Shown one piece after another: positions 34,205 to 50,230 of a stretch of DNA of 64,000 bases (its first letter is position 1; each line of letters opens with the position of its first letter). Made by a program: the position numbers and the translations under genes. Below the pieces are notes generated by a model that was not told where the DNA came from, did no database searches, and worked only from the letters and a program-made list of their open reading frames with translations. Source of the stretch: Candidatus Marinacidobacterium sp. (GTDB taxonomy: Bacteria; Acidobacteriota; Vicinamibacteria; Marinacidobacterales; Marinacidobacteraceae); assembly GCA_965204755.1 (NCBI GenBank), contig OZ242011.1:928001-992000 (forward strand), written 5' to 3'.

Positions 34205-34213
34205 CGCCCGCCA

Positions 34214-34219
34214 AGTATA
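34214..34219 (-). promoter_or_regulatory. -10 box TATACT in the repeated intergenic unit preceding each ATPase copy (also 35403-35408; CATACT at 33017-33022)
   Basis: Conserved spacer TAGCSGCTCGC...CGGCGTT(C/T)C(T/C)ATACTTGGCGGRC(G)ATG before all three copies; 8-9 nt from the start codon. Confidence 0.6.
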
Positions 34220-34250
34220 GGAACGCCGAGCGCCGATCGCCGGCGAGCGG

Positions 34251-35393: not shown

Positions 35394-35432
35394 CGTCCGC
35401 CAAGTATAGGAACGCCGACCGCCGGCGAGCCG

Positions 35433-35590
35433 CTATACGCCGCCGGCTTCGTCGTCGTCCGGCGGCGGCGCGTGCTCCAGGATGCAGTCCATCAGACCGG
35501 GAATCCCCGGCTCCCAACTCGGCGCCCCCCCCGCGCCCGCCGGACGAAACCGAGATGCTCGAGCGCCTCCGCCGGCGCGAAAGCGGCTCA
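35433..35590 (-). pseudogene. 3' remnant of a fourth ATPase paralog
   Basis: Encodes AEALEHLGFV then, after a frameshift in a G run, PSWEPGIPGLMDCILEHAPPPDDDEAGGV*, matching the paralog B C-terminus; the rest of the gene is absent. Confidence 0.8.
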
Positions 35591-35625
35591 TCGCCGGCGG
35601 CGCCCCTGCGTCCGGTGGCCGGGGG

Positions 35626-35651
35626 TGTAACTTCCGGGCGGCAAAGGCGTA
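35626..35651 (+). promoter_or_regulatory. ECF-type (SigW-like) promoter, probably autoregulatory
   Basis: TGTAAC-N16-CGTA, close to the B. subtilis SigW consensus TGAAAC-N16-CGTA, 7 nt upstream of the ECF sigma GTG. Confidence 0.7.
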
Positions 35652-35658
35652 GGAACGG

Positions 35659-36336
35659 GTGGCCGAGGGGATGAGCGACGCGGAGGCGCGGCGGCTCGTC
35701 CGCCTCTGCCAGGAAGCCGACCGAGTCCGCTCGGCGGCGCCCTCCCCGCCGGCCTCCAACCCCTCCGGAACCACCGAAGACACCGTGCCGAACGCCGACC
35801 CCGCCGAGGACGACGAAACCGACCGCGCCGCGACCGAGGCTTGGGCCCGGCTGTACTCGCACTTCCACCCGCGGATGCTCGGCTTCTGCCGCCGGGTGCT
35901 CCCCGAGCGGGCGGAAGACCTGGCCGCCGAAATCCTCCTGAAGGCCCGGTTCCGGCTCGACCGCTTCGACGCCTCGCGTCCGTTCGCCCCCTGGCTGTTC
36001 AGGATCGGGGCGAATCGCTGCTGGGACGAAACCCGGCGCGTGCGCCGCTTCGAACCGCTGGACGACGAAGGCGTCGAGGCGCTGGTCTCGAATTCGCCCA
36101 CGCCGCTCGACGAACTGGTCACCGCCGAGCGGCGCGAGCGGTTGGGGCGGGCGCTCGACCGCCTGCCGGCGCGCCAGCGGTTCGCGATCACGCTGCGCTA
36201 CGGCGCCGACCTCTCCTACCGGGAGATCGCCGAAACCCTCGGCCTGACCGAAACCAATGTGGGCGTGCTCCTGCTGCGCGGACGCCGCCGCCTGAGGCGG
36301 TTCCTCGAAGAGGAGCCGGCGGAGGAGGAAGCATGA
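35659..36336 (+). CDS. ECF RNA polymerase sigma factor (sigma-70 group 4)
   Basis: Region 2 (AEDLAAEILLKA...FDASRPFAPWLFRIGANRCWD) and region 4 (LDRLPARQRFAITLRY..LSYREIAETLGLTETNVGVLLLRGRRRL); exact start uncertain. Confidence 0.92.
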   Translation: MAEGMSDAEARRLVRLCQEADRVRSAAPSPPASNPSGTTEDTVPNADPAEDDETDRAATEAWARLYSHFHPRMLGFCRRVLPERAEDLAAEILLKARFRLDRFDASRPFAPWLFRIGANRCWDETRRVRRFEPLDDEGVEALVSNSPTPLDELVTAERRERLGRALDRLPARQRFAITLRYGADLSYREIAETLGLTETNVGVLLLRGRRRLRRFLEEEPAEEEA

Positions 36337-38003
36337 GTCCCGAGGAAACCGGCGGCGCCCACCTCTCCGAACTCGACCTGCTCGTGTTCATGGACGGCGA
36401 ACGGAGCGCCGAGGAGTCGCGCGCCGCGCGGGCCCACCTCGGCCGCTGCTTCGAGTGCAACCGGGCCTACGAGGCGCTCCGGCTCGAGAGCGAAGTGATC
36501 CGCTCCGGGGTGGCGCTCGTCCCGGCGGATTCGACCGCCGCCGGCCGCCCGCCGCCGCGCGAACTCGGCTGGGTGGTCGCCGCCGGCGTCGCCCTCTCGC
36601 TCGGGCTCGTCGTCTTCCGGCGGCTCTACGCCGCGGTGAGCGACGCCTCCGCCGGGACGCCGCTCCCGGACGCCCTCCCCTTTCTCTCGAACCTCGGCTA
36701 CACGCTGCTCTCGCTGCTCGACCTTCGGCAGATCGGGACGCAACTCGCCCTCGGAGGCACCCTCGTCATGGTCCTGATCGCCCTCGCCGCGGCATCCGCC
36801 GCCTTCCGCCGCTCCCGGAGCGGCGCCGCCCCGGTGCTGCTGCTCGCGGCGCTCCTTCCCGGACTCTCCTGGTTCTCCGCGCCGGCGGAAGCCATCGAGG
36901 TCCTTCGCGGCGAGAGTTGCGAGGTGGCCGCCGACCGGGTCATCCGCGACGATGTGGTGCTGATGTGCGAGCGCAACGCCACGATCGCCGGGACGATCGA
37001 GGGCGATCTCTACTACCTCACCCAGTCGCTCACGATCACCGGCCGGGTGGACGGCGATGTCATGGGGGTGAGCGAGCGGCTCGAAGTCCGCGGACTGGTG
37101 GACCTGAGCGTGCGCGCGCTGGCCCAGACCGTGGAGATCGGCGGCGCGGTGGGGCGGGGGCTGGCCGCCGCCGGGCAGCGGATCACGGTCGCGGAAGGGG
37201 GGAGCGTCGGCGGGAGCCTCTTCGCCGCGGCGGAGCGGCTCACGGTGTCGGGGCAGGTGGGGCGCGACTTGCGGGCGGCCGCCGCGCGCACCGCGCTCAA
37301 CGCTCCGGTCGGCGGGCGGGTGCGGGTGCTCGGCGAGGAGTTCACGGCCGGCCCGGAGGCGCGGATCGCCGGCTCGGCCCGGTTCTCCGGCCCGAACGCT
37401 CCCGACCGCCACGCCCGGGCGAGCCCGGTGGACTGGAACCGTCCGGCGGAAGACGGACCCGACCCGTGGGGGACCGCGGGCAGCGTCGCCTCGCGCTGGG
37501 CGATGGGGTTCCTGCTCGGCTTGGCGCTGGCGCTGCTGATGCCGGGCGCGCTCGGCGGAATCACGGCGGTCGGGGGACGACCGCTGGTCCCGGTGCTGTT
37601 CGGCGTGCTCCTGTTCGTGGGGATGCCGTTCGCGGCGTTGCTGCTGGTCATCACCTTCGTGGGCCTGCCGCTCGGCGCGCTCACCGCGGCGCTGTGGCTG
37701 TTCCTGCTCTACGCCGCCCGGGTGGCCGCCGCGATGGTGATCGGACAGGCGATCCTGGGGCTCGGCGCGTCCACCGGCGAGCGGCTGCTGCGGCTCGCGC
37801 TCGGGATGCTCGTCCTCGCCGTGGTCTTCGAACTCCCGGTCATCGGATTCATCGCCGGCCTGCTGACGATGTTCCTCGGGCTCGGCTCCTTCGCGGTGTG
37901 GGTCTGGAGGACCCGGCGGGGCGCGGGAACGCCGACCGTTTCCGGGAGCGCCCCGCCGGCGCCGGCCCCCCCGGCCCCGCCGGCGGTCGCCGGCCCGGCC
38001 TGA
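36333..38003 (+). CDS. Zinc-finger (HxxxCxxC) anti-sigma factor with beta-helix/polymer-forming-like repeats and multi-TM C-terminus
   Basis: ATGA overlap with the sigma stop; HLSELDL...AHLGRCFEC ZAS motif; TM helices; repeats TIAGTIEGDL/TITGRVDGDV/EIGGAVGRGL/TVSGQVGRDL; several C-terminal TM segments. Confidence 0.85.
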   Translation: MSPEETGGAHLSELDLLVFMDGERSAEESRAARAHLGRCFECNRAYEALRLESEVIRSGVALVPADSTAAGRPPPRELGWVVAAGVALSLGLVVFRRLYAAVSDASAGTPLPDALPFLSNLGYTLLSLLDLRQIGTQLALGGTLVMVLIALAAASAAFRRSRSGAAPVLLLAALLPGLSWFSAPAEAIEVLRGESCEVAADRVIRDDVVLMCERNATIAGTIEGDLYYLTQSLTITGRVDGDVMGVSERLEVRGLVDLSVRALAQTVEIGGAVGRGLAAAGQRITVAEGGSVGGSLFAAAERLTVSGQVGRDLRAAAARTALNAPVGGRVRVLGEEFTAGPEARIAGSARFSGPNAPDRHARASPVDWNRPAEDGPDPWGTAGSVASRWAMGFLLGLALALLMPGALGGITAVGGRPLVPVLFGVLLFVGMPFAALLLVITFVGLPLGALTAALWLFLLYAARVAAAMVIGQAILGLGASTGERLLRLALGMLVLAVVFELPVIGFIAGLLTMFLGLGSFAVWVWRTRRGAGTPTVSGSAPPAPAPPAPPAVAGPA

Positions 38004-38027
38004 CCGGCCGGTCGGGGAGGCTCGCCC

Positions 38028-38498
38028 ATGGGCTGGATCAGCGACCTCGTCGCCGGCGGCTCGGGAAAGTCCCGCCGGTCGTTCTCGGGGAAAGGCCCCT
38101 TGCCGCCGCCGGGGCCGCGGGAGGTGCAGATCGCCACGGCGGTGCTCCTCATCGAGGTCTCCGCCGCCGACCGCGAGGTGGACCCGCGCGAACGCCGGGC
38201 GATCCTGGACTCGCTCTCGTCGGCGTTCGGGCTCTCGCCGGCGGAAACCGCCGAGATCGTCGAAGTCGCGGACGGCCGTTCGGCGGACTCGATCTCGCTC
38301 TACGAGTTCACCCGGCTGGTGGACCGGGCGTTCACCGGGGAGCAGAAGGCGACGGTGGTCGAGTTGCTGTTCCGGGTCGCCTTCGCCGACGGACGGCTGG
38401 CCGGCGAGGAGGAGCACCTGATCCGGAAGGCCGCCACCCTGCTCCATGTGGAACACCCGGCCTACCTGGCGGCGAAGGCCCGGGCGCGCGCCGGGTAG
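38028..38498 (+). CDS. TerB family (tellurite-resistance-like) protein
   Basis: ATAVLLIEVSAADREVDPRE...SISLYEFTRLV...LFRVAFADGRLAGEEEHLIRKAATLL pattern typical of TerB. Confidence 0.85.
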   Translation: MGWISDLVAGGSGKSRRSFSGKGPLPPPGPREVQIATAVLLIEVSAADREVDPRERRAILDSLSSAFGLSPAETAEIVEVADGRSADSISLYEFTRLVDRAFTGEQKATVVELLFRVAFADGRLAGEEEHLIRKAATLLHVEHPAYLAAKARARAG

Positions 38499-38520
38499 GG
38501 CCGGCCGGAGCGGCGCTCGT

Positions 38521-38534
38521 TGTGCTACATTGTG
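38521..38534 (+). promoter_or_regulatory. Putative TA operon -10/operator
   Basis: AT-richer patch with palindrome TGTgctACA overlapping TACATT just upstream of the antitoxin ATG. Confidence 0.45.
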
Positions 38535-38541
38535 CGTCAAT

Positions 38542-38838
38542 ATGACTCTCCCGCTCCCCTCCACCTCCGCTGTCGGCGTACGGGAACTGCGCCAGAACCT
38601 GAGCGTCTATCTGCGCCGGATCGTCGCCGGGGAACGGTTCGAGGTCACGGACCGGGGAACACCGGTGGCGCTGCTGGTTCCCATCCGCAAGGAGATGACA
38701 CCGCTGGAGCGGTTGATCGCCGAAGGTCGCGTGGCGCAGCCGCCGGTGGGCGACCTGCTGGACCTGCCGCCACCGGAGGGAGAGGTCTCGACGGTCGCGA
38801 GTGATGCGCTTCTCGCGGCGCGCGAAGAGCGGCTGTAA
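38542..38838 (+). CDS. vapB: Phd/YefM (prevent-host-death) family antitoxin, VapB role
   Basis: VGVRELRQNLSVYLRRIVAGERFEVTDRGTPVALLVP signature; directly upstream of a PIN toxin. Confidence 0.9.
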   Translation: MTLPLPSTSAVGVRELRQNLSVYLRRIVAGERFEVTDRGTPVALLVPIRKEMTPLERLIAEGRVAQPPVGDLLDLPPPEGEVSTVASDALLAAREERL

Positions 38839-38844
38839 CCGCCC

Positions 38845-39255
38845 GTGGTTTATCTGGACTCTTCCGCCATCGTCAAACTCATCGTCCCGGAACCGGAGTC
38901 GCCGGCGCTGCACCGCTATCTCGCGGCCGAACCGGAACGCGTGTCGAGCGCGTTGGCGCGAGTCGAAGTCGTAAGGGCCGCGCGGATGCGATCCGCAACC
39001 CGGGAGACTCGGCGTTGCGTCGAGGAGGCGCTCGCCCGGATCGCCTTGGTGGACATTACCCAAGATCTCCTCGCGAGCGCCTCCGTTCTCAAACCGGATG
39101 CCTTGAGAACCCTCGACGCCATCCACTTGGCGACGGCCCGCTCCTTGGCGGGCGTCCGCTCGGTGGTGACCTACGACCGTCGGCTCCGGATGGCTGCGGA
39201 AGGCGCGGGCCTCGTCGTGGACGCTCCGGGGCTGCGCGCCCCGAACACCGACTGA
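38845..39255 (+). CDS. vapC: VapC PIN-domain toxin
   Basis: YLDSSAIVKL..EPES, SSALARVEV, LRTLDAIHLATA, VTYDRRL motifs. Confidence 0.93.
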   Translation: MVYLDSSAIVKLIVPEPESPALHRYLAAEPERVSSALARVEVVRAARMRSATRETRRCVEEALARIALVDITQDLLASASVLKPDALRTLDAIHLATARSLAGVRSVVTYDRRLRMAAEGAGLVVDAPGLRAPNTD

Positions 39256-39366: not shown

Positions 39367-40788
39367 TCAGGACGCTTCGGCGACAGCGGCCGGGCGGATG
39401 GCGGCCTGCATCTCCTCGACGCTGACGAACTTCACGCGGGGGCGGCCGGACGCGGCGCCCCGTTCGACTTCGAGCGCGTCCAGCGCCTTCCAGTCGGCGA
39501 ACGAGAAATAGTCGGGAACCCGCTCGGCGACCAGCCGCCGCGCGGCTTCCGGCGCCGGTCGCTCGGGATTCCAGTGGTTCCCGGCGGCGGCGTCGGCCAG
39601 CAGCGATTCCACGGTTTCGAGGGCGTCCGGCTTGTTCGTGCCGATGACGCCGGTGGGGCCGCGCTTGATCCAGCCGGCGCAGTACTGGCCGCGCCGGCGC
39701 GTCCCGTCCGGGGCGTCGAGCACGCGGCCGTCCTCGTGCGGGATCACTCCCCAGTCGTCGCGGAACGGCACTCCGGGGAGGGCGACCCCCCGGTAACCCA
39801 CGGAACGGAAGACGAGTTCGGCGTCCAGAGTCTCGAAGTCTTCCGTCGCGCGGGGGCGGACCGTTCCCCGCTCGTTCCGGTACAACTCGTTCCGCACGAG
39901 TTTCACCCGCGAAACGCCGCCGTCTTCGCCGGGGAGCAACTCCAGCGGCGAAACCAGGAAGCGCACGAACAGCGTCCGCGGCTTGCCGGAGCGGACCTCG
40001 GCGGCGTACTGCTGCAGGATCTCCACTTTGCGGGGCGCGGCCTTGTCGGCGCCGGAGTCCACCCATTCCCGGCTCACCGGGTCGAGCGCCGCTTCGTCCG
40101 GCAGGACGCGGATGTCCGCGCCTTCGAGTTCGCCGAGTTCGCGGATTTCCGGGTTGCTGAACGCCGCCTGCGCCGGGCCCCGGCGCCCGAGCATGTGGAC
40201 TTCCCGGATGCGGCTCTCGGCGAGTTGCTCCAGCGCGTAGTCGGCGATGTCGGTGGTCTTCAACTCGTCCACCGAACGCGAGAGGACGCGGCAGACATCC
40301 ACGGCCACATTCCCGACGCCGACCACCGCGACCGACTCACGGGAGAGGTCGAACTCGCGGTCGCGGTAGTCCGGGTGGCCGTTGTACCAAGCCACGAACT
40401 CCGTCGCGGCGTGGCTTCTCGGCAGGTCTTCGCCCGGGATGCCCATCGCGCGGTCCACCTGCGCGCCGACCGCCCAGATCACCGCGTGGTAGTGGCGCTC
40501 CACATCGGCGAGGCGGAGGTCGCTCCCGAACTCGACGCCGCCGTAGAACCGGAACCGCTCGTGTTTCGCGGTGCGCTCGTAAGCCCGGGTGACCTGCTTG
40601 ATCTTCTGGTGGTCCGGCGCGACGCCGCCGCGCACCAGCCCGTAGGGCGTCGGCAGCCGGTCGTAGAGGTCCACCGAGACGGTGACTCCTTCCGCCCGGA
40701 AGAGGTGGTCGGCGGCGTAGAAACCGGTCGGCCCGGAACCGAATATGGCGACGCGGAGAGGGTGGTCGGGAGTCCCGGGGCGGCTCAT
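39367..40788 (-). CDS. fprA: Ferredoxin/flavodoxin--NADP+ reductase, FprA/adrenodoxin-reductase type
   Basis: GSGPTG, LPTPYGLVRGGVAPDH, FVAWYNGHPD, GVGNVAVD, GRRGPAQAAF, GWIKRGPTGVIGTNK; TATACT at 40799-40804 upstream. Confidence 0.92.
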   Translation of the reverse strand: MSRPGTPDHPLRVAIFGSGPTGFYAADHLFRAEGVTVSVDLYDRLPTPYGLVRGGVAPDHQKIKQVTRAYERTAKHERFRFYGGVEFGSDLRLADVERHYHAVIWAVGAQVDRAMGIPGEDLPRSHAATEFVAWYNGHPDYRDREFDLSRESVAVVGVGNVAVDVCRVLSRSVDELKTTDIADYALEQLAESRIREVHMLGRRGPAQAAFSNPEIRELGELEGADIRVLPDEAALDPVSREWVDSGADKAAPRKVEILQQYAAEVRSGKPRTLFVRFLVSPLELLPGEDGGVSRVKLVRNELYRNERGTVRPRATEDFETLDAELVFRSVGYRGVALPGVPFRDDWGVIPHEDGRVLDAPDGTRRRGQYCAGWIKRGPTGVIGTNKPDALETVESLLADAAAGNHWNPERPAPEAARRLVAERVPDYFSFADWKALDALEVERGAASGRPRVKFVSVEEMQAAIRPAAVAEAS

Positions 40789-40907
40789 GGCGGCGCGAAG
40801 TATAGGGGCGGGAGGCCGCTGCTTTCGCGCTGTCCGGCGCCCGGTCGGAGCCGCCCGGCGACGGCCGAAACGCCTCGCCGGCGCCCCGGCCGGGGGCGGA
40901 TCCGGAC

Positions 40908-41924
40908 TCAGCGCAGACGGGGGTCGGCGCGGAGCAATTCCAGGGCGCGGCCCACCAGTTGGTGGACGCGCTGCGGGCTGACGCCCAGCGACTCGCCGAT
41001 CTCGGCGAGCCCCATCGGGTCCGCGCCATCGAGCCCGAATCTCCGCGACAGGACCGTCCGGCGCCGCTCGGGGAGGCGGAGGAGCGCCTCGCGCAGGAAC
41101 CCGACGGCCTCCTTCGTCTCGGCGGCTTCGCGGGGATTCGGCGACCGCTCGTCCGCGATGGAGGCGCCGCGGGGCCGAGCGCCGCCCGCCGCCGGTTCGT
41201 CGAGGGACTCGAACTCCGGGACCTGCCGGATCACCGCCCGCAGCAGTTCCACCGGGATGCCGATCAGGGCGGCGTCGTCCTCGAGGACATGCCGGTGGCG
41301 CCGGCCGTCGCAGCAGGTCTCGCCCCGGTAGCGCTGCTCGAGTTCCGCCGCCACGCCGGCCGCGAGGCGGCGGAGCGCGAGGCGCGCCAGCGGGATCTTG
41401 ATCGTCCGCGCCTTCGAGGAGAGCGCCCGGCAGATGTGCGAACGCACGGCGCCCGCGGCGTAGGTGGCGAACCGCGCGCCGTGTCCCGGCTCGAACGCGT
41501 CGAGCGCCTCCATCAGGCCCAGGTTGCCTTCCTGGATGAGGTCGTCGAGCGGCAGCCCGAAGCACGAATACCGCCGGGCGTAGCGTTCGGCGACGCGGAC
41601 GACCAGGCCCAGGTGGCCGAGCAGGAGCCGCTCCCGGTGCCGTTCGAAGGCCCGGACCGCCTCCGGCGGGGGCGGGTCCGCGGCCTCCATGACCCGCTCC
41701 GCCCGCCACATCTCCCGAAGGCGCCGCCGCTCTTCCTCCGCGCTCGGCCGGGGGTGGCTGCGCGCCATCCGCTTGTAGAGGGCGACCCCGTCGAGGCCCC
41801 CGCGACCGAAATCGTCGGACTCGGTCCCCGTCTCCCGGTTCGCCCCGTTTCCCGCCGACTCGACCTCGCTGCTCGCGTGCCGCCGGTCGGCGGTGAGCCC
41901 GGCGGGGCTCTCTCGAATGTCCAT
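40908..41924 (-). CDS. Accessory sigma-70 family factor (RpoD/RpoS/RpoH-like, lacking region 1.1)
   Basis: HLGLVVRVAERY..DDLIQEGNLGLMEALDAFEPGHGARFATYA (region 2), RTIKIP, SLDEP, LPERRRTVLSRRFGL...LAEIGESLGVSPQRVHQL (region 4). Confidence 0.88.
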   Translation of the reverse strand: MDIRESPAGLTADRRHASSEVESAGNGANRETGTESDDFGRGGLDGVALYKRMARSHPRPSAEEERRRLREMWRAERVMEAADPPPPEAVRAFERHRERLLLGHLGLVVRVAERYARRYSCFGLPLDDLIQEGNLGLMEALDAFEPGHGARFATYAAGAVRSHICRALSSKARTIKIPLARLALRRLAAGVAAELEQRYRGETCCDGRRHRHVLEDDAALIGIPVELLRAVIRQVPEFESLDEPAAGGARPRGASIADERSPNPREAAETKEAVGFLREALLRLPERRRTVLSRRFGLDGADPMGLAEIGESLGVSPQRVHQLVGRALELLRADPRLR

Positions 41925-42097
41925 GTCGGCCCTTCGCCGACCGGCCGCGCCCGGCGGCCGCCCGGCTCCGGGAATTCGTGCAATGCGCGTGCCCCTGCCC
42001 CGTTCAGGAGGACGAAGCGCCTTCTCGAACTTTTTTTGCCCGGACCCCTTGAAAATCCCTCGAACCGCGACAAAAGAAGGGGTACCGGGCCACCGCG

Positions 42098-42211
42098 ATG
42101 AACGGAACCCTCCGGACCGACGCCATCTTCTGCTTCGTCTCGGCGCCGGGCGCTCCGTTCTTGGCCGTTCGGGCCTTCCACTTCATCCGAGAAAACTTCT
42201 GCCGGAAGTAA
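42098..42211 (+). CDS. Putative 37-aa small ORF/leader peptide
   Basis: MNGTLRTDAIFCFVSAPGAPFLAVRAFHFIRENFCRK*; a homologous segment with synonymous-type substitutions lies at ~43199-43310. Confidence 0.45.
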   Translation: MNGTLRTDAIFCFVSAPGAPFLAVRAFHFIRENFCRK

Positions 42212-42251
42212 CCGCTTTCGCCAAGGGCATCCCGCCCCGGGGAGACACACC

Positions 42252-42692
42252 ATGAAACACCTCGTCACGCTCGTCATCTTCACGGCCGGCGTGTTCCCCG
42301 GCGCCGCGGACGCCGGGGAGAAGCGCTCCGCCGGCCTGCTCGCCTCCGCGCGCCTCGCCGGAATCGAGGCGTCGCCGCTGGTCTTCAACGAGGCGGTTTC
42401 CCCGAACGCCGCCGTGGAGGGGCGGCGGGTCTCCGGGGCGACCATCCTGCTGGCGACGACGATCGCTTCGGCGGCCCTGGTGACCACGGCTTGGCTGATC
42501 GGCCGCAACTCCGGAAACGCCTGCCAGCCGGACTCCCGGTTCTCGCGGAGCCTCGGACGCTGGACGAGCGTCGTTTCCGGACGGTGGGTGACTCTCGACG
42601 ATGGAACCCGAGTTGTCATTCCCGGCCCGGAGCCACATCCGCCCTTGGGCCCGCCGGGCGTGACCTTCCCCGATCTCTGCGTGGCTCGCTGA
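42252..42692 (+). CDS. Small exported/membrane protein, paralog 1 of 3 (146 aa), unknown function
   Basis: GGAG RBS, signal peptide (AADA), conserved LLxSARxAGxEASPLVF, hydrophobic LATTIASAALVTTAWL, Cys...CVAR tail. Confidence 0.8.
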   Translation: MKHLVTLVIFTAGVFPGAADAGEKRSAGLLASARLAGIEASPLVFNEAVSPNAAVEGRRVSGATILLATTIASAALVTTAWLIGRNSGNACQPDSRFSRSLGRWTSVVSGRWVTLDDGTRVVIPGPEPHPPLGPPGVTFPDLCVAR

Positions 42693-42739
42693 CGGGCCGC
42701 AGTCCGAACCCGCTCCCCGATCGACGCGAGGAACCGACC

Positions 42740-43171
42740 ATGAAGCAACTCCTCTACTCCCTCACGATCTTCGCGACGCTCGCGATTGCGGGCGCCGCCG
42801 GCGCCGATGAGTCACCCGCGACCCGCTTGGTCGAGTCCGCGCGGCAGGCGGGGATGGAAGCGTCCCCGCTGGTCTTCGAACGCGACGCCGGCGCTGACCC
42901 GGACGCCGCGACCGGGGCAAGACTTACCGGCCGCGCCCTGGTGCTGGCTACCGCAATCGCATCCACCGCCGCAGTCGCGGTGGCGTGGCTGCTGCGCGGG
43001 CGGAACGAGTGCGCCTCCATCACCCGCTATCCCGAAAGCGCCGTAACGCTCAGCGGAAACTGGACCTCGACGCCGCCGGAGGTTCGCTGGGAGACTCGAC
43101 CGGACGGGACGCCGTATCCGATCACCGCTCCGCCGCCGCCGACACCGAGGCCGGTCTGCGTGGCGCGTTGA
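42740..43171 (+). CDS. Small exported/membrane protein, paralog 2 of 3 (143 aa)
   Basis: GAGG RBS, MKQLL...GAAGA signal, LVESARQAGMEASPLVF, LVLATAIASTAAVAVAWLL, NEC...CVAR. Confidence 0.82.
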   Translation: MKQLLYSLTIFATLAIAGAAGADESPATRLVESARQAGMEASPLVFERDAGADPDAATGARLTGRALVLATAIASTAAVAVAWLLRGRNECASITRYPESAVTLSGNWTSTPPEVRWETRPDGTPYPITAPPPPTPRPVCVAR

Positions 43172-43298
43172 GGAATCGAAGCCGCTACCGTCGGAGGAGT
43201 GGACTCGACGGGCAGCACCATCGTTCTCGATGCCGCCATTACCTTCTGCCGCTGACGGGCGTTCCGTACTCGGCGGTCCAAGCCTTCCGCCTCGTCCG

Positions 43299-43345
43299 GG
43301 ACGACTGCTCCCGGACGACTGCTCCCGGACGACTGCTCCGGGACG
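43299..43345 (+). repeat. 14-bp tandem repeat (ggacgactgctccc) x3+
   Basis: Directly visible upstream of paralog 3. Confidence 0.9.
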
Positions 43346-43391
43346 CTGCCCTGTTCGAGCGCCACCTCGCCGGACACCCCGGAGACGCCTC

Positions 43392-43874
43392 ATGAAACAT
43401 CTCCCTGCCGCCCTCTTCACGACGGCCGTCGCGCTCTCCGGCGCCGCCGGCGCCGCCGAAGCGGAACCGACTCGCCTTCTCGACGCGGCGCGGCTCGCCG
43501 GAACCGAGGCCTCCGCGCTCGTCTTCGAGCGTGATGCCACGGGGCACGCGGACGACGGTCCGGGGACGCGGATCTCCGGGAAGTCGCTCGTGCTCGCGAC
43601 GGCCATCGCCTCGGCGGCGGCGATCACCGTGGCGTGGCTGCTGAGGCCGCGCAGCGAGTGCGTGGCCGCCCGCGGATCGAGGTACGACTTCGCTCGGGCG
43701 TGGTCGAGGGCCGGGCGATACCGGTCGTGGACACCGGCGCCGACGCCTCCGCCACCGCCGGAACCGGGAACCGCGCCTCCGCCCGTGCCCCCGCCCTTGC
43801 CGCGCATACCTCCGGTTCCGCCGCCGACGCCGGCCCTTCCCCCAATCTGCGTGCCGCGGGGGAGTTATCGGTGA
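43392..43874 (+). CDS. Small exported/membrane protein, paralog 3 of 3 (160 aa), Pro-rich tail
   Basis: GGAG RBS, MKHL...GAAGA signal, LLDAARLAGTEASALVF, LVLATAIASAAAITVAWLL, SEC...CVPR. Confidence 0.82.
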   Translation: MKHLPAALFTTAVALSGAAGAAEAEPTRLLDAARLAGTEASALVFERDATGHADDGPGTRISGKSLVLATAIASAAAITVAWLLRPRSECVAARGSRYDFARAWSRAGRYRSWTPAPTPPPPPEPGTAPPPVPPPLPRIPPVPPPTPALPPICVPRGSYR

Positions 43875-44485
43875 ACTCCACCGGGTCTCCGGCCCGACCC
43901 TCCGAGGAATCGGCCGACGCGGCGACCGGGCCCGGCCCGGCCGGGCGCCGCGCGGCGCGGCGCCGCCGGGGGTTTCCCGCTATCGGGGACCTCCTGCGGC
44001 GCTGGGGGAGTTGCTTCGCGGTTTCCGCGGTCGTCGCAGGGCCGATGCTGGCGTCCGTCTTGGAGGAGAGCGCCCGCGAGTTGTTGGTCCTCTCCGCCAT
44101 CGGCGCGGCCGCGGTGGTCGCGGCGCTCCTGCGCGCCCGGGGGCGGGAGGCGCTCTCGCAGGTGGCGGGGGTGCTGCTCCTGTGGTCGTTCTCCTTCGGG
44201 ATGGGAGGTCTTCTGGAACGCGGGCCGGGCGGGGAGGCCTTCCCGTGGCCCCTGCCCCCGTTCCGGGACTATCTGCGGGCCGAAATCAACGCGTTCGCGC
44301 GGGCCTTCGCCGTCCTCGGCGTCCCGGCGACCGGGCTCTTCCTGGTTCGCATCCGGCTCGAGGCCGGGGCCGGCGGACGCGGCGGCAAGTTCCTCGCCCT
44401 CCTCCGCGCGGTGGACGGCGGGCCCGACTCGGGCCCGTCGCCGTGGAGCCCCGAGTCGGTGCTGCCCGATCTCCGGCGGCGGTAG
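43871..44485 (+). CDS. Hypothetical integral membrane protein (~4 TM)
   Basis: GTGA overlap with paralog 3 stop; four hydrophobic segments in the ORF 43634..44485. Confidence 0.6.
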   Translation: MNSTGSPARPSEESADAATGPGPAGRRAARRRRGFPAIGDLLRRWGSCFAVSAVVAGPMLASVLEESARELLVLSAIGAAAVVAALLRARGREALSQVAGVLLLWSFSFGMGGLLERGPGGEAFPWPLPPFRDYLRAEINAFARAFAVLGVPATGLFLVRIRLEAGAGGRGGKFLALLRAVDGGPDSGPSPWSPESVLPDLRRR

Positions 44486-44556
44486 CCGTCGCAGGGAAAC
44501 CGGAACCGGGAACCTCGGGGGCGCGCCCCGCGGCGTGGTTGCAGCGTGGCGGGCCG

Positions 44557-47500
44557 TTATCGGCCGATGACGCGGTAGAGGGCGGGGATGACCAGGAGGG
44601 TCAGCGCGGTCGAGAGGAGCAGGCCGCCGATCACGGCGATGGCCATGGGCGTGCGCAACTCCGCGCCTTCGCCGAGGCCGACGGCCATGGGGAGCAGACC
44701 GAGCACCGTCGTGGCGGTGGTCATCAGGATCGGGCGGAGCCGGACGCGGCCCGCTTCCCGGAGCGCGGCGAGTTTGTCCCGGCCGCCGCGCCGGAGGCGG
44801 TTCGTCGCGTCGAGGAGGAGGATGGCGTTGTTCACCACGATTCCCGCCAGCATGATGACCCCGATGAGGACGACGACGCTGACGGTCACCCCGAACAGCC
44901 AGAGCGCGAGGACGACGCCGACCAGCGAGAACGGGACGGCGAACAGGATCACGAACGGGTGCAGCAGCGACTCGAACTGCGAAGCCATCACCAGATAGAC
45001 CATGAAGACCGCGAGCACGATGGCGAACCGCATGCTGTCGAAACTGGTTTCCATCTCTTCCTGCTGGCCGCCGAGCCGCCAGGTGAACCCGCCGGGGAGC
45101 GCGATCTCCGCCATCTCCGCTTCGATGTCCGCCGCGACGCCGGCGAGGTCCCGGCCGGAAAGGTTCGCGGTGATCGTCGCCACCCGCTCGCCGTCGGCGC
45201 GCCGGATCTCCGCCGGGCCGGTGACTTCGTCCACCGAAGCCACCGCCGAGAGCGGAATCGCCGCGCTGCCGCCGTCGGCGATGTTCAGCGAGCGCAGGTC
45301 GTCGGCGCTGTCCCGGTAGGACTCCTCCGAACGCAGCCGGATATCTATGGAGCGGTCTTCGCGCTGGATGTCCGTCGCCACCTCGCCCAGCACCTTGGAA
45401 CGAACCAGGTTGCCGAGTTGGTTCACGGTGTATCCGAGCGCCGCCACGCGTTCGCGGTCGAAGCGGATCTGCAGTTCGGGGTTTCCGCCTTCCGTCGAGG
45501 ACTTCACATCCACGAGGCCGGGAATGGCGCGCAGCCGCTCGACCGCCTCGTCGGCCACGCGGTCGAGCAGGGTCAGGTTGAAGCCGCGGATCTCCAGTTC
45601 CACCGGGGTGCGGAAACTGAAGTAGGACGGACGCCCGAACAGGTAACGGAGGTCCGGGTCCGCCTCGAGGCGCGGCCGCAGTTCCTCGATCGCGGCCTCT
45701 TCGCGTTCCCGATCCACCGGGGGGTCGAGCAGCACCGTCAGTTGCCCGATGTTCTCCCGCAGTTCGCCGGCGATGCCCCCCTGCTGGCTGCTCGTCCCGA
45801 TGGAGGCGTACACGGTTCGCGCGCCCGGCAGGGCGGCGGCGGCTTCTTCGAGATTCTCCATCCGGCGGGCGTTCAGGTCGAGGTGCGTCCCCGCCGGGAG
45901 TTCCGTGTCCACGAAGAACTCGCCCTGGATGAGTTCGGGAACGAGTTCGGCGCCGAGTGACGGATAGAGGGTCCCCGCGCCGCCGAGCAGGAGCACGGCG
46001 ACGGTCCCGACGCGGAGCGGGTGGTCGAGCGCGGATTGGAGCGCCGTCGGGTAGGCGCGCGCGACGGCGCCGTACGCGAGATCGAAGAGGCGCTGCGGGA
46101 GGAAGAGGATCCCGCGGACGAGGAGACCGATTCCCTTCGCCAAAAGCAGCGCGCCGCCCCGGAGGACCCGGCCGACGGCGGCGATCGCCTTGCCGATGAG
46201 GCGCCCGTAGGCGGTGCGGAAGGTGGATTCGCCGCCGGCCGTCGGTCGGAACTCGCGCGAAGCCAGCATGGGGATCAGCGTCAGCGCGACGAGCAGCGAA
46301 ACGGCGAGCGAGAAAGTCACCGTGAGCGCCTGGTCGCCGAACAACTGGCCGGCGATTCCCTCGACGAAGACGATGGGGACGAAGACGCAGACGGTGGTCA
46401 TCGTGCTCGCGATGACCGCCTGCCCCACTTCGCCGGCGCCGGCGCGCGCCGCTTCGACGAGTTCCAGGCCTTCCTGGCGCTTCCGGCGGATCGCTTCGAG
46501 CACGACGATGGAGTTGTCCACCAACAGGCCGATGCCGAGCGTGATGCCGCCGAGCGACATGATGTTCAGCGAGACGCCGGACACATACATCAGGAAGAAG
46601 GTCCCGATGACCGAGATGGGGATCGAAACGCCGATGATGAGCGTGCTCCGGAGTTCGCCGAGGAAGAGGACGAGCACGAAGATGGCGAGGATGCCGCCGA
46701 GGACCGCGGTCTGCAGCACCTCGGAGACCGACTGGCGGATGTAACGCGCCTGGTCGGTGACCAGCGTGAGTTCCAGGCCGTCGCCGACCTGTTCCAGGCG
46801 GCCGCCGAGGTCGTCCACCCGGGCGAGCGCGGCGTCGGCGACGGTCACCGTGTTCGTGCCGCCTTCCTTGTACACCGCGACTTCGATGGATTCGCGGCCG
46901 TCTATCCGGGTGATGACTTCGCGCTCCTTGGCGCCCCGGCGGATCTCGGCCACATCGTCGAGCCGGATCACGGTGCGCGCGGTGTCCACGACGATCGACC
47001 GCATGTCCTCGGGGCGCTCGAACTCGTTGATCGTGCGCACCAGGTATTCCGCCCCGCCGTCGAGCAGCCGCCCGGCGGTCAGGTTCACATTCTCGGCGGC
47101 GAGGCGGTTCACCACCGCCGGGACGGAAAGACCGAGGCTCGCCACCTTGCGCTCGTCTATCTCGACCTGGATCTCTTCTTCGAGGCCGCCGCTGACGAGG
47201 ACCGCCGCCACGCCCTCCACGCGTTCCAGGTTCCGCTGGACCTCCTGTTCCGCGATCAGGCGGAGGCGAACCAGGTCCTCGTTGCCGGTGAGGCCGAAGC
47301 GGAGGATCGGGTCGAGAGAGGGATCGAAACGGAGGAGCGTCGGACGCGGCGCGTCGAGCGGCAGGCGCACCACATCCAGCCGCTCGCGCACATCGAGCGC
47401 GGCCAGGTCCATGTCGGTGTCCCAACCGAACTCCAGCGTGACTTCGCTGAGGTCGGGGCGCGAGGACGACACGACCCTCACCACATTGTTCACGACGCCG

Positions 47501-47712
47501 ACCGCGTCCTCGATCGGGCGGGTGATCAGGTTCTCGATCTCGCCGGGCGCGGCGCCTTCGTAGTCGGTGCGAACGGTCAGGGACGGGTAGGTGATGTCCG
47601 GGAGGAGGTCCACCGCCAGCCGGCCGAACCCCACCCAGCCGAACACCACGATGGCGATGAACAGCACCACCACCGTGACCGGTCGGCGGATGGAGAACTC
47701 GACGATGCGCAT
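44557..47712 (-). CDS. RND efflux transporter permease (AcrB/AcrD/AcrF family)
   Basis: 1051 aa; SIRRPVTV, DLLPDITYP, GLLVDNSIVVLE, GIVVNNAILL, RLRPILMTT, PMAIAVIGGL. Confidence 0.95.
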   Translation of the reverse strand: MRIVEFSIRRPVTVVVLFIAIVVFGWVGFGRLAVDLLPDITYPSLTVRTDYEGAAPGEIENLITRPIEDAVGVVNNVVRVVSSSRPDLSEVTLEFGWDTDMDLAALDVRERLDVVRLPLDAPRPTLLRFDPSLDPILRFGLTGNEDLVRLRLIAEQEVQRNLERVEGVAAVLVSGGLEEEIQVEIDERKVASLGLSVPAVVNRLAAENVNLTAGRLLDGGAEYLVRTINEFERPEDMRSIVVDTARTVIRLDDVAEIRRGAKEREVITRIDGRESIEVAVYKEGGTNTVTVADAALARVDDLGGRLEQVGDGLELTLVTDQARYIRQSVSEVLQTAVLGGILAIFVLVLFLGELRSTLIIGVSIPISVIGTFFLMYVSGVSLNIMSLGGITLGIGLLVDNSIVVLEAIRRKRQEGLELVEAARAGAGEVGQAVIASTMTTVCVFVPIVFVEGIAGQLFGDQALTVTFSLAVSLLVALTLIPMLASREFRPTAGGESTFRTAYGRLIGKAIAAVGRVLRGGALLLAKGIGLLVRGILFLPQRLFDLAYGAVARAYPTALQSALDHPLRVGTVAVLLLGGAGTLYPSLGAELVPELIQGEFFVDTELPAGTHLDLNARRMENLEEAAAALPGARTVYASIGTSSQQGGIAGELRENIGQLTVLLDPPVDREREEAAIEELRPRLEADPDLRYLFGRPSYFSFRTPVELEIRGFNLTLLDRVADEAVERLRAIPGLVDVKSSTEGGNPELQIRFDRERVAALGYTVNQLGNLVRSKVLGEVATDIQREDRSIDIRLRSEESYRDSADDLRSLNIADGGSAAIPLSAVASVDEVTGPAEIRRADGERVATITANLSGRDLAGVAADIEAEMAEIALPGGFTWRLGGQQEEMETSFDSMRFAIVLAVFMVYLVMASQFESLLHPFVILFAVPFSLVGVVLALWLFGVTVSVVVLIGVIMLAGIVVNNAILLLDATNRLRRGGRDKLAALREAGRVRLRPILMTTATTVLGLLPMAVGLGEGAELRTPMAIAVIGGLLLSTALTLLVIPALYRVIGR

Positions 47713-47784
47713 GGCGCGGGCGGCGGCGGGTCGCGCGATTCGCGGCGGGGGGCTCGGGACCGGCGGACGGGGCGGCGCGCGGCG

Positions 47785-50196
47785 CTAGCCGGGCGGCCCG
47801 GTCGCGCCGGGTCGCCGGCGGCGGGCGAGGAACCGGTCGATCTGTTCTTCCGAGAGACCGCGCTCGCGCAGCCGCTGCCGCACCCGTTCGAGTTCCTCTT
47901 CCGACCCCTGCCGCGGTTCTTCGGGCGGGGGAGGCGCGGCGGCGTCCGGCGGCGGGGGAGGCGCGGCGGCGGGAGTCTCCGCTTCGGCCGTTTCCCCGGT
48001 CCGGGAAGCGGAGGGCGCGGGCGGGGGGGAAGACGATGGGGAAGACGATGGGGAAGACAGCGGGGAAGACGACCGGGAAGACCGTGGGGAAGACGGTGGG
48101 GAAGGCGCCGCCGATGCCGCGGGCGGGGGGGCGCGCTCCGCCGGACCCGGGGCGGGGGACGCGGCCCGGCGGCGCTCGATGTAGGCGTTCATCCGGGCTT
48201 CGATCTGCGCCTCGGTCAACCCGGAGCGCCGCATGCGCTCGCGGGCGCGCTCGAGGCGCTCCGGCGCCAGGGGGTCGGCGGCGGGCGGCGCGGGGGCGGA
48301 CGGCGACGGACGAGGAGCGGCCTCCGGCGGCGACGGGGCCGGCGCCTCGGCGGGCGAAGGCGGAGCGGGGCGCCCTGCGCTCGCCGCGGACGGCCGGACG
48401 GCGGGTTCAGGCGGCGGCGGCGCGCCAGCCGGCGGCGTCGCAGCAACCGGCGGCGTCCCGGCAGCCGGCGGCGTCGCAGCAGCCGGCGGCGTCCCGGCAG
48501 CCGGCGGCGTCGCAGCAGCCGGCGGCGTCGCAGCAGCCGGCGGCGTCGCAGCAGCCGGCGGGGGCGCGGCAGCCGGCGGCGTCGCGGCAGCCGGCGGGGG
48601 CGGCGGGGCGGACGGGGGGCTCGCCGGGCGGGCGGCGCGAGTCGCCGCCCCCTCTCCCGGAGGGTCGGGCCGGGGGGCGGAGGCCTCGCGCGACGGGGCA
48701 GCCGGCGCCGGAGTAGTGGACGACTCGGGAGCGCGTCCCGGCGCCCCCGGGCGCGCCGCGCGCCGCGCTCCCGCCGGAGGGGCGCCCGGCGGCGGGCCGG
48801 ACGCGCCCCCCGACCGGCGGGGTCGCCGCTCCCCGGCGGCGGCGGCAGCGGCGGGCCGCGTTTCGTCGGTCTCCCCGGTCGAGGCGCCGGGGCCGGCGTC
48901 GGCCCGGGCGCGGGCCCGGCCGGCCCGTTCCGTCGGCTCGCCGCCGGAGGGCGCCGCTCCCGGCGGGCCGGGACGGGCGCCGGGACGGGCGCCGGGGCCG
49001 GCGGCGCGGCGCGGCGGAGACGCCTCCTCGGCGCCGGGGCCGGCGAAGATCTGCACCGGCGTGGCGTCGGTGAGCCCGTCCTGCCCGACCACGATCACGC
49101 GGTCACCGGCGGCGAGCCCTTCGAGCACCTCCACCGAGTCGTCTTCCTCGTAACCGAGCGTGACGCTCCGGCGAACCGCGGCGCCGTCCTCGACCACGAA
49201 CACCGCGTCCGCGAGGCTGTCCAGCGAGAGCGCCCGCTTGGGCATGATGAGCGCGTTCTCCCGGATGTCGGTGACCAGGCGCACGGTGGCGAACATGCCC
49301 GGGCTCAGCCGGCCCTGGCGGTCCACCTCGAGGGTGACCCGGATCGTGCCGGTGGCGGCGTCCACCACCGGACTGACGCGCAGCACCCGCCCGGGGAACC
49401 GCTCGCCGGGAAACGCCTCGACTTCGATGAACGCCGGCTGGCCGACCGAGAGCCGGGTCAGGTCCCGTTCCGGCGCGGCGATCGTGCAAAGGAGCGGGTC
49501 GAAGTCGGAGATGCGGAACAGGCGCTGCCCGCTCGACACCGTTTCCCCGAACTTCACCGCCCGTTCGATGATGAGACCGGAGAAGGGCGCGGTGATCCGG
49601 GTGAAGTCGTGGACGATGCGGGCGCCGTCGAGTTGCGCGCGGGCGGAGTCGAGCGCCGAGCGCGCGCTGTCGTACACCTCCTGGCTCACCACCCGGTTCT
49701 CGAGGGAAACCCGCGCCCGTTCGTAGGCCACTTCCGCCTGCTGGACCGCCACCCGCGAAATCTCCACCTGCGCCCGGGTCTCGGTCTCGTCTATCCGGGC
49801 GAGGAGCGCGCCCGCTTCGACGAAGTCCCCTTCCTCCACCGCGATCTCGGTGAGCGGCCCGCCGGTGCGCGCGACGACATCCACCTCGCGCTCCGCTTCG
49901 AGCGCCCCGTTGGTCTCGATGAACGCGGAGATGTCGCCGGCGGCGATCTCGGCGACCTCCACCGGCACCGCGGAAGCCCGGCCGCCTCCCGGGCCGCCCA
50001 TGCCCGCGCCGCCCATTCCGCCGGGCGGCCCTCCGCCCCGGCCCCGGCCGCCGCCGGGGCCGCCGCCGGCCGGCGCCTCCTCTCCGCCGCCTCCGCACGC
50101 CGCGCCGGAGAGCGCGGCCGCCACGAGGATCGAAAACACGCGCCGGAGAGCGCGCGGGCGGCCGGCGGGGCCGGCGGAGGATGGGGAAGTCGTCAT
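47785..50196 (-). CDS. RND periplasmic adaptor (MFP) lipoprotein with ~400-aa Pro/Ala-rich C-terminal extension
   Basis: Lipobox-like LSGAAC; VEEGDFVEAGALLARID, ITAPFSG, PGMFATV, GLAAGDRVIVVGQ; then a low-complexity tail. Confidence 0.88.
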   Translation of the reverse strand: MTTSPSSAGPAGRPRALRRVFSILVAAALSGAACGGGGEEAPAGGGPGGGRGRGGGPPGGMGGAGMGGPGGGRASAVPVEVAEIAAGDISAFIETNGALEAEREVDVVARTGGPLTEIAVEEGDFVEAGALLARIDETETRAQVEISRVAVQQAEVAYERARVSLENRVVSQEVYDSARSALDSARAQLDGARIVHDFTRITAPFSGLIIERAVKFGETVSSGQRLFRISDFDPLLCTIAAPERDLTRLSVGQPAFIEVEAFPGERFPGRVLRVSPVVDAATGTIRVTLEVDRQGRLSPGMFATVRLVTDIRENALIMPKRALSLDSLADAVFVVEDGAAVRRSVTLGYEEDDSVEVLEGLAAGDRVIVVGQDGLTDATPVQIFAGPGAEEASPPRRAAGPGARPGARPGPPGAAPSGGEPTERAGRARARADAGPGASTGETDETRPAAAAAAGERRPRRSGGASGPPPGAPPAGARRAARPGAPGRAPESSTTPAPAAPSREASAPRPDPPGEGAATRAARPASPPSAPPPPPAAATPPAAAPPPAAATPPAAATPPAAATPPAAGTPPAAATPPAAGTPPVAATPPAGAPPPPEPAVRPSAASAGRPAPPSPAEAPAPSPPEAAPRPSPSAPAPPAADPLAPERLERARERMRRSGLTEAQIEARMNAYIERRRAASPAPGPAERAPPPAASAAPSPPSSPRSSRSSSPLSSPSSSPSSSPPPAPSASRTGETAEAETPAAAPPPPPDAAAPPPPEEPRQGSEEELERVRQRLRERGLSEEQIDRFLARRRRPGATGPPG
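48020..48600 (-). repeat. Coding microrepeats in the MFP tail: 18-bp PPAAAT units and 12-bp Ser/Pro units
   Basis: gcagccggcggcgtcgca-type units at ~48420-48600; ggggaagacgat-type units at ~48025-48105. Confidence 0.85.
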
Positions 50197-50230
50197 GGAA
50201 AAAGCGGGGCCGACGAGGCTGGCCGGCGCG

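Follow-up and report, generated by a model that had tools for sequence, protein, structure and literature searches.

What kind of proteins are encoded by a tandem array of three similar genes that lies divergent from an accessory sigma factor gene, and are the C-terminal tails of these proteins hypervariable? The locus that raises this question is at positions 40908–44485 of a 64,000-nucleotide stretch from Candidatus Marinacidobacterium sp. (contig OZ242011.1), referred to here as the window, which has a GC content of approximately 72%. The locus consists of five genes: a divergent sigma factor gene, three paralogous genes and a coupled membrane protein gene. An initial annotation proposed a sigma-controlled cassette of variable effectors, display loops or processed peptides. 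The main result of the present analysis is corrective. The tails fall into recurring types that are conserved across genomes, and the view of a hypervariable cassette appears to stem from old paralogue types of one genome. With a probability of about 40%, the locus would represent a lineage-specific, sigma-driven operon of type I inner-membrane proteins with modular cytoplasmic tails.

The accessory sigma-70 family gene (P0005, positions 40908–41924) is on the minus strand and encodes 338 aa with Sigma70_r2 and Sigma70_r4 domains. The other four genes are on the plus strand. Paralogue A (P0001, 146 aa) is at positions 42252–42692, paralogue B (P0002, 143 aa) at 42740–43171 and paralogue C (P0003, 160 aa) at 43392–43874. 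They are the three paralogues of 143–160 aa seen in the initial annotation, and pairwise BLASTP comparisons give E values of 1e-20, 1e-8 and 2e-17. A six-frame scan of the window with the family profile finds exactly three copies, all at this locus. The membrane protein gene (P0004, positions 43871–44485, 204 aa) has a GTG start at 43871 that overlaps the TGA of paralogue C as GTGA, and its product has four hydrophobic segments; both the coupling and the approximately four transmembrane (TM) segments had been correctly described.

Two long open reading frames (ORFs) on the opposite strand, at positions 41513–42748 and 42812–43807, overlap the proposed genes. They could be the real genes, and the proposed ORFs spurious products of a high-GC genome. 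This is effectively refuted. The GC content at third codon positions is 0.82–0.92 in the proposed frames compared with 0.73–0.77 in the two opposite-strand ORFs, and all four plus-strand genes have a GGAG 8–12 nt 5' of the start codon. Protein-level conservation extends over 79 clusters, with dN/dS values well under 1 in the tails.

The three paralogues have the same order of parts: a signal, a conserved helix, an acidic linker, one TM helix and a two-Cys tail. The signal is of the Sec type, with a basic start and a hydrophobic core followed by A-x-A. The block after the signal reads L-L-x-x-A-R-x-A-G-x-E-A-S-x-L-V-F. The hydrophobic segment, S-G-x-x-(I/L)-(V/L)-L-A-T-x-I-A-S...A-W-L, has Kyte-Doolittle values of 1.97–2.22 over 19 aa. 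As had been noted, these parts are shared; the AxA end of the signal and both conserved blocks are within the 47 invariant columns of the three-paralogue alignment. Each protein has exactly two Cys, also as described before (positions 91 and 143 in A, 91 and 140 in B, 90 and 153 in C). Paralogue A has its signal at residues 1–21, with predicted cleavage after A-D-A, the helix at approximately 25–44, the TM segment at approximately 62–84 and the tail at 85–146. Paralogue B has the same architecture. The proposed tail ending CV(A/P)R holds for A and B, which end CVAR, but C continues further and ends CVPRGSYR. Of the 76 aa in the tail of C, 25 are Pro, and this tail is also very basic.

The paralogue family is tiny and, as far as the sequence collections reveal, confined to one uncultured acidobacterial lineage. 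A word-indexed search of 5.8 billion cluster representatives gives 79 clusters including the window's own, none with a Pfam domain. An exhaustive HMMER search of 1.84 billion 50%-identity representatives gives 17 hits at E ≤ 0.001, one of which was dropped (a protein of 3192 aa whose match is limited to the Ala-rich TM positions). A scan of 185,579 species-representative genomes gives 111 pattern-matched stretches and one confirmed locus, designated L001, in a metagenome-assembled genome of Candidatus Marinacidobacterium sp. (Acidobacteriota, Vicinamibacteria). No family had been recognized in the initial annotation, and this still stands. Searches of Pfam, NCBIfam, PHROGs and PADLOC with P0001–P0004 give only noise (best match XAC1346_fam, 17.6 bits, cut-off 120), and PDB sequence searches give best E values of 1.1 with the family profile and 0.88 with the membrane-protein profile. 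The best ESM Atlas values are 0.89 (P0001) and 0.81 (P0004), to unnamed clusters and below the level of more than a lead. Titles and abstracts in the literature gave no account of this lineage's sigma factor or of the paralogue family.

The tails were initially described as unrelated. The tails of paralogues A and B, however, align over their whole length with 36.5% identity (E 1.5e-8). When 86 family sequences were read and then sorted by motifs, at least six recurring tail types were found that are conserved between genomes: A (30 sequences), C (28), D (7), E (7), F (4) and B (3), with 6 sequences unsorted. Same-type pairs from different contigs (n = 860) have mean identities of 0.73 in the tails and 0.58 in the N-terminal modules (N-modules), and for different-type pairs on one contig (n = 21) the means are 0.39 and 0.48, respectively. 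Between the window and L001, the type A tail has 77% identity and a dN/dS of 0.23, compared with 59% identity and a dN/dS of 0.91 for type A residues 23–86. The type C tail has a dN/dS of 0.44. Because of these low ratios (0.23–0.44) and the 77% identity of the type A tail between genomes, each tail type is judged to be under purifying selection. The dN/dS is below 1 in all regions tested except the signal-peptide codons of paralogues A–C (1.09). The impression of hypervariability is, on these comparisons, the result of viewing old paralogue types side by side inside one genome.

A comparison of N-modules and tails shows 25 mosaic pairs, in which identity is 80% or more over the first 45 N-module residues and under 50% in the tails. 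Examples are a B and a D member with N-module identity of 91%, and an A and an E member with 96%. The TM sequence goes with the tail type and not with the N-module. The exchangeable unit is therefore probably the signal plus helix, and the functional unit the TM segment plus tail. Sixteen contigs (matched by size) have two or three paralogue clusters, with type sets such as AC, AD, AE, ACE and AEF, and array content differs across lineages by the exchange of a small number of fixed types. A general rule of concerted evolution in the 5' halves was considered and rejected: N-modules on the same contig have a lower mean identity (0.48, 21 pairs) than those of same-type orthologues (0.58), although local mosaics do exist.

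The position of the tail relative to the membrane had been singled out as a key question in the initial annotation. The tail is predicted to be cytoplasmic since a cleavable signal puts the N-terminus outside and a TM-grade segment then returns the chain to the inside. The initial annotation had pointed out that the Cys pair would be cytoplasmic if the hydrophobic segment is a true TM helix, and both the Kyte-Doolittle values and the charge distribution are in agreement with this. Mean net charge is -3.9 in the 40 aa before the TM segment and +2.9 in the tails, and of these two parts it is the tail that is more positive in 83 of 84 family members (one sequence was dropped and one was unparsed). 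Tails have 42–101 aa after the TM segment. Exactly two tail Cys are present in 83 of the 85 parsed members, with one further sequence that failed parsing; of the other two, one has a Gly substitution and one is a read-through product. There is also an invariant Pro three residues ahead of the last Cys throughout the family. From these properties a cytoplasmic Cys pair is considered quite probable.

The alternative topology, in which the tails are periplasmic, disulfide-closed mini-domains and the second hydrophobic segment lacks stop-transfer activity or some other anchoring is used, is rather unlikely. It would account for the two Cys that bracket the tail in nearly all members across diverged types, and Ala and Thr are frequent in the type A segment. 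The initial annotation proposed AlphaFold as a check of topology and disulfide. The AlphaFold2 models of paralogue A obtained are of low confidence, with mean pLDDT of 56.2 (68-row alignment) and 51.5 (30-row alignment). The first model displays short strands at both Cys (residues 91–94 and 142–145), as a disulfide-closed domain might have, but the strand at the second Cys is missing from the second model. Helices at approximately 25–44, 62–85 and 95–108 and a hairpin at approximately 111–123 recur in both. A Foldseek search of the first model against the PDB gives a best E value of 0.9. In addition, a signal followed by a segment with a Kyte-Doolittle value of approximately 2.0 over 19–22 aa predicts stop-transfer, and the positive-inside charge bias of 83 of 84 members is opposite to what periplasmic tails would require.

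The same segment bears on a further proposal, that the products are bacteriocin-, effector- or RiPP-like peptides, secreted or processed, in which a variable core follows a conserved leader, and that the 4-TM protein is an immunity factor. Tandem paralogues followed by a coupled small membrane protein are consistent with this, as are the reassortment of N-modules onto different tails in 25 pairs and the two-Cys pattern, which is common in secreted peptides. However, the within-type tails are under apparent purifying selection and are better conserved than the "leader", array content changes by swaps among few fixed types, and a TM-grade segment is situated between leader and "core". No double-glycine leader is seen by eye. 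The adjacent genes of the resistance-nodulation-division (RND) type are Mdt-like and convergent. No peptidase, ABC exporter, modification enzyme or other cluster-specific processing or export gene is present among the scanned neighbours, which do not comprise every small ORF. The proposal is improbable, and the effectors, display loops or processed peptides of the initial annotation do not agree with the TM-grade segment, the inside charge bias and the absence of processing genes among the neighbours scanned.

Assignment to the RiPP or bacteriocin precursors as a class was also rejected. A hypervariable core is absent (within-type tails 0.73, N-modules 0.58), and the neighbours scanned, again without every small ORF, encode an FprA-like reductase, TerB, PIN and AAA ATPase proteins, and Mdt-like RND and membrane-fusion proteins (MFP). 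Class II bacteriocin and microcin operons resemble the locus in that tandem genes for small paralogues, alike at the N-terminus, precede one for a small polytopic membrane protein. They differ in that here the signal is of the Sec type and not a double-glycine leader, a TM-grade segment is present, the tail types are conserved, and the scanned neighbours include no exporter or peptidase.

Several other classes of small membrane or exported proteins were considered. A class III pilin signal has a short basic leader, Gly at -1, Phe or Met at +1 and Glu at +5. A type IV pilin-like assignment was rejected since a Sec signal is present within approximately 60 aa before the hydrophobic helix, and by eye there is no Glu at +5 after the Gly of "SGK". 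Signals for C-terminal sorting, such as PEP-CTERM, place the TM helix at the very end of the protein, with nothing but a short basic cluster after it, and are ruled out by the 42–101 aa that follow the TM segment here. CaaX-type proteins have a Cys four residues from the end, and their CPBP-protease partners have Glu-Glu and His motifs. Although A and B end CVAR, the C-terminus is at C+4 to C+7 in types C, D, E and F; His is absent from P0004, whose "EESAR" is not shared by L001. The procoat (major coat protein) of filamentous phages has the same order of cleavable signal, short acidic periplasmic helix, TM segment and basic cytoplasmic end as the paralogues, which would resemble it in insertion and topology. 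The differences are the lack of a PHROGs match and of phage genes nearby, and paralogue tails of 42–101 aa with a Cys pair compared with approximately 10 aa in procoat.

The sigma factor P0005 has matches to PF04542 (region 2; 50.6 bits, E 1.7e-13) and PF04545 (region 4; 43.8 bits, E 1.8e-11), both above cut-offs. Residues 89–332 align with RpoS and with the M. tuberculosis SigB and SigA chains (E 2e-27 to 1e-26), and the N-terminal 95 aa are of low complexity. The region 3 domain, PF04539, is found in the L001 sigma orthologue (29.6 bits; gene at L001 positions 3257–4360). P0005 is far under the RpoS, RpoD and RpoH equivalog cut-offs, in keeping with its initial description as an opposing, non-housekeeping sigma-70. 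For RpoS, TIGR02394 gives 134.4 bits (cut-off 378.7) and NF004207 gives 132.7 (cut-off 394); for RpoH (sigma-32), TIGR02392 gives 85.1 (cut-off 323.1). The hit to TIGR02937 (94 bits, cut-off 42.9) is to a model labelled superfamily. An extracytoplasmic function (group 4) sigma factor is ruled out by the RpoS alignment, which is continuous through region 3, and by the PF04539 hit in L001. MzaA of the anti-phage MZA system was also rejected: NF041931 gives 122 bits against a cut-off of 800 and only over model positions 460–706, and the PADLOC match is restricted to P0005 residues 94–179.

The sigma orthologues (P0098–P0121) form a tight set of 24 clusters (E ≤ 9e-47), after which the score drops from 178 to 124 bits. 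Beyond these are generic primary-like sigmas carrying region 1.2. By these comparisons P0005 belongs to a small RpoS-like clade. Group 1–3 sigmas with a canonical -10 reading head have a Trp-Trp pair in region 2.3. Here, RpoS "tyatwwirqtiera" aligns to P0005 "tyaagavrshicra", such that P0005 has Ala-Gly in place of the pair, which L001 and the 18 closest orthologue clusters lack as well. RpoS "trervrqiq" aligns to P0005 "spqrvhqlv". Cys165, in region 2.4, is present in 26 of 26 clade members and in 0 of 5 generic sigmas, and there is a clade-specific 9-aa insertion, ET(C)CDGRRHxH, at P0005 residues ~203–212. These Cys and His residues could form a metal or redox site beside the DNA-reading surface. 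Compared with group 2–3 sigmas of the RpoS/SigB type, P0005 is thus similar over residues 89–332, with regions 2 and 4 recognized in the window copy and region 3 in L001. It differs in the absence of the region 1.2 domain that the generic hits have, in its sub-cut-off equivalog scores, in the Trp-Trp, "RQ..E" and "ERVRQ" residues, and in the clade-specific Cys and Cys/His insertion. In sigma-70 factors, the altered positions are used for opening and recognition of the -10 element and for recognition of the -35 element, and therefore a non-canonical promoter is expected.

A candidate for such a promoter is found in the divergent intergenic region. Window positions 41925–42251 align with L001 positions 4361–4552, and a conserved promoter or operator block is present at positions 42027–42090 (plus strand), with the L001 copy at 4462–4525. 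The shared blocks are, in order, GAACTTTTTTT, CCC[CG]TTG, TCGAACCGC and AAAAGAAGGG[GT]TACC. GAACTTTTT and AAAGAAGGG are each present once in the 64-kb window and once in L001. The arrangement GAAC-N16-C(C/G)TT presumably resembles the -35/-10 pairs of some alternative sigmas. No sigma-70 consensus promoter is present in positions 41800–44600 (0 sites). The intergenic region had been called AT-rich; its GC content is lower than in the flanks (approximately 0.75) but is still 0.67–0.68. The CTTGAAA suggested as a sigma-32 type -35 element is indeed present at positions 42048–42054 and overlaps the CCC[CG]TTG block, but its GAAA part is not conserved, and L001 has CGTTGTC at this position. A sigma-32-type promoter has CTTGAAA at -35 with a CCCCAT-like -10; judged by eye against this consensus, no such -10 follows the window CTTGAAA.

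RNA elements were looked for as well. Rfam models over positions 40500–45000 give nothing near gathering scores, and folding of the 5' region gives z = +0.19. A 37-codon ORF (MNGTLRTD...) is present at positions 42099–42212 in the frame of paralogue A and ends with TAA. This ORF is similar to the N-terminal extension seen in the relative P0018, which has no intervening stop, and could represent a conserved small ORF, a leader or just a conserved 5' untranslated region.

The L001 locus has its genes in the same order as the window, apart from one extra gene: an FprA-like reductase, the sigma gene, the intergenic block, an extra 300-aa gene, four paralogues (types F, A, E and C), the membrane gene and an RND permease. 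The paralogue A orthologue (L001 6001–6438) has 64% identity. Paralogue C is the last paralogue ahead of the membrane gene in both genomes, and in both the membrane gene overlaps its stop codon. The FprA-like reductase, with 88% nucleotide identity, is the best conserved gene of the region. The extra gene (L001 4553–5455) is directly behind the promoter block and encodes a protein that begins like a lipoprotein (…LWLAC) and has 11 Cys in its C-terminal region. No Pfam family matches it, and the window has no counterpart (best tblastn E 0.21).

Co-occurrence of the paralogues with the sigma and membrane genes had been proposed as a check. Beyond L001, it was assessed by a proxy, the same size of the longest listed contig between gene-family clusters. 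Adjacency is not directly observed in this way, and the counts are lower bounds because only one contig is listed per cluster. Nine of the 24 sigma-orthologue clusters share a contig size with a paralogue cluster, including two sigmas only 49% and 52% identical to P0005. The same is true of five of the seven membrane-gene clusters outside the window, and three contig sizes are common to all three gene families.

The 4-TM protein P0004 has an Arg-rich N-terminus, four hydrophobic segments and no His, and its C-terminal tail is conserved (RLEAGxGGRGGxFLALLR..DGG.D). It has 44% identity to the L001 counterpart, and an MNSTG start is called in five of seven relatives. A Cys is present at the predicted cytoplasmic edge of TM1 in both genomes. 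A predicted complex of mature paralogue C and the 4-TM protein had a score of 0.00 with controls not run, and argues neither for nor against binding.

These features raise another possibility, rated next after the sigma-driven operon: the array products or the 4-TM protein may regulate the sigma factor as an anti-sigma-like membrane tether, from which an envelope or redox signal releases it, with binding perhaps through Cys/His-metal or thiol chemistry. This is a distinctly less likely account, and the two are compatible. A partner gene is usually found near the gene of a dedicated alternative sigma, and no recognizable anti-sigma domain adjoins this sigma. The invariant Cys165 and Cys/His insertion of the clade, which are absent from generic sigmas, would fit such chemistry. 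So would the near-invariant Cys pair of the tails and the Cys of the 4-TM protein at the edge of TM1. The persistence of co-occurrence (by proxy) at 49–52% sigma identity is also in its favour. The paralogues, however, share their periplasmic and TM parts and differ in the cytoplasm, which is the reverse of what binding to one sigma predicts. P0001–P0004 match no known anti-sigma family (zf-HC2, RskA, RsgI-N etc.), with nothing in Pfam or NCBIfam at E ≤ 1 beyond noise, the paralogue N-terminus is a signal peptide, and the array is divergent from the sigma gene and not co-transcribed with it. SigI/RsgI-type sets offer a comparison. They also have paralogous single-pass proteins with a shared and a diversified part that are linked to an alternative sigma; here, one sigma is present for several paralogues, there is no anti-sigma domain, and the polarity is opposite, with the shared part outside and the diversified part inside.

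A more specific form is a thiol- or metal-bridged membrane switch, which is far less probable still. The Cys-clamped tails and the edge Cys of the 4-TM protein would dock the Trp-pair-less sigma through a shared metal or mixed-disulfide site, with tail types tuning the signal and the sigma Cys/His cluster lying beside the helix that reads the -10 element. If true, this would be an anti-sigma principle that works without any known anti-sigma domain and with its polarity reversed.

The account favoured here remains the lineage-specific operon of type I proteins. The divergent RpoS-like sigma would most likely transcribe the array from the conserved promoter block. The cleavable Sec signal would force a type I topology on each paralogue: a periplasmic part of approximately 40 acidic residues with one conserved helix, a TM helix rich in small-xxx-small spacing, and a basic tail of 42–101 aa in the cytoplasm. 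The TM helix and tail would act as one functional module, and the tail types (A–F and others) may present different cytoplasmic surfaces. The shared periplasmic helix and TM helix may have a common role in insertion or assembly, in which the coupled 4-TM protein might take part. In the cytoplasm, the Cys pair would more likely be a metal or redox site than a structural disulfide. We infer each of these elements, i.e., sigma dependence, signal cleavage, topology, assembly and the role of the Cys pair.

Certain observations weigh against this account. A strict, domain-bracketing Cys pair is more typical of an extracytoplasmic disulfide and leaves some doubt as to topology. The type A hydrophobic segment is only borderline on a biological hydrophobicity scale by a rough hand estimate, and the structure models of paralogue A are of low confidence. 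Sigma dependence rests on adjacency and the conserved intergenic block. In L001 the extra 300-aa gene separates the promoter from the array, so that sigma-paralogue adjacency is not strict. The synteny between window and L001 also spans both flanking genes, and because the whole region is syntenic, synteny alone is weak evidence of a functional link. Of the sigma-controlled cassette of variable effectors, the conserved unit is upheld by L001 and the contig-size proxy, but the variable part is not, as the tails are better conserved than the N-terminal part.

Other features are present in and around the locus. The 220-bp spacer between paralogues B and C has a 14-bp tandem repeat (positions 43295–43349, plus strand; unit TCCCGGACGACTGC, 4.0 copies). 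The copy number seems to differ between strains because the read-through relatives P0009 and P0014 have the encoded "DDCSRT" only once. RNA folding of the spacer is not notable (z = -1.73 compared with shuffles). The FprA/adrenodoxin-reductase-like pyridine nucleotide-disulphide oxidoreductase (positions 39370–40788, minus strand) is 119 bp downstream of the sigma gene on the same strand, and may be co-transcribed with it. On the other side of the locus, at positions 44557–53515 (minus strand), two Mdt-like RND permeases flank a membrane-fusion protein (47785–50196). The C-terminal ~400 aa of the latter are of extreme Pro/Ala-rich low complexity, with local GC of up to 0.89. A link to metal efflux was rejected since the adjacent permeases score best as multidrug Mdt-like proteins and not as CzcA or CusA.

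Positions 33053–39255 have two adjacent AAA_16/AAA_22 ATPase genes, a gene for a TerB-domain protein, and a PIN-domain toxin gene behind a small ORF that is possibly its antitoxin. Within this segment, positions 36333–38003 encode a protein without a Pfam hit whose Cys/His start is anti-sigma-like and which has several TM segments. Further away, approximately 29 kb at positions 1102–31175 (minus strand) consist of ~75 tandem repeats of 375–402 bp (125–134 aa). ORFs of 8046 aa (1102–25242) and 3851 aa (19620–31175) overlap there in different frames, which points either to two genes or to a single giant, repetitive gene for a surface protein that changes frame. The sole Pfam match is a weak one to PepX_C, and the repeat unit reads like an Ig-like adhesin module.

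The scope of these findings is narrow, since the family is apparently confined to one uncultured acidobacterial lineage and its function is a prediction from sequence. If true, the array would represent a family of bacterial type I membrane proteins that is new to description and whose cytoplasmic tails are modular. The sigma factor would represent a small RpoS-like clade without the Trp-Trp pair for -10 opening and with Cys and His residues near the DNA-reading surface, and the conserved intergenic block would provide a candidate promoter for the sigma of this clade.

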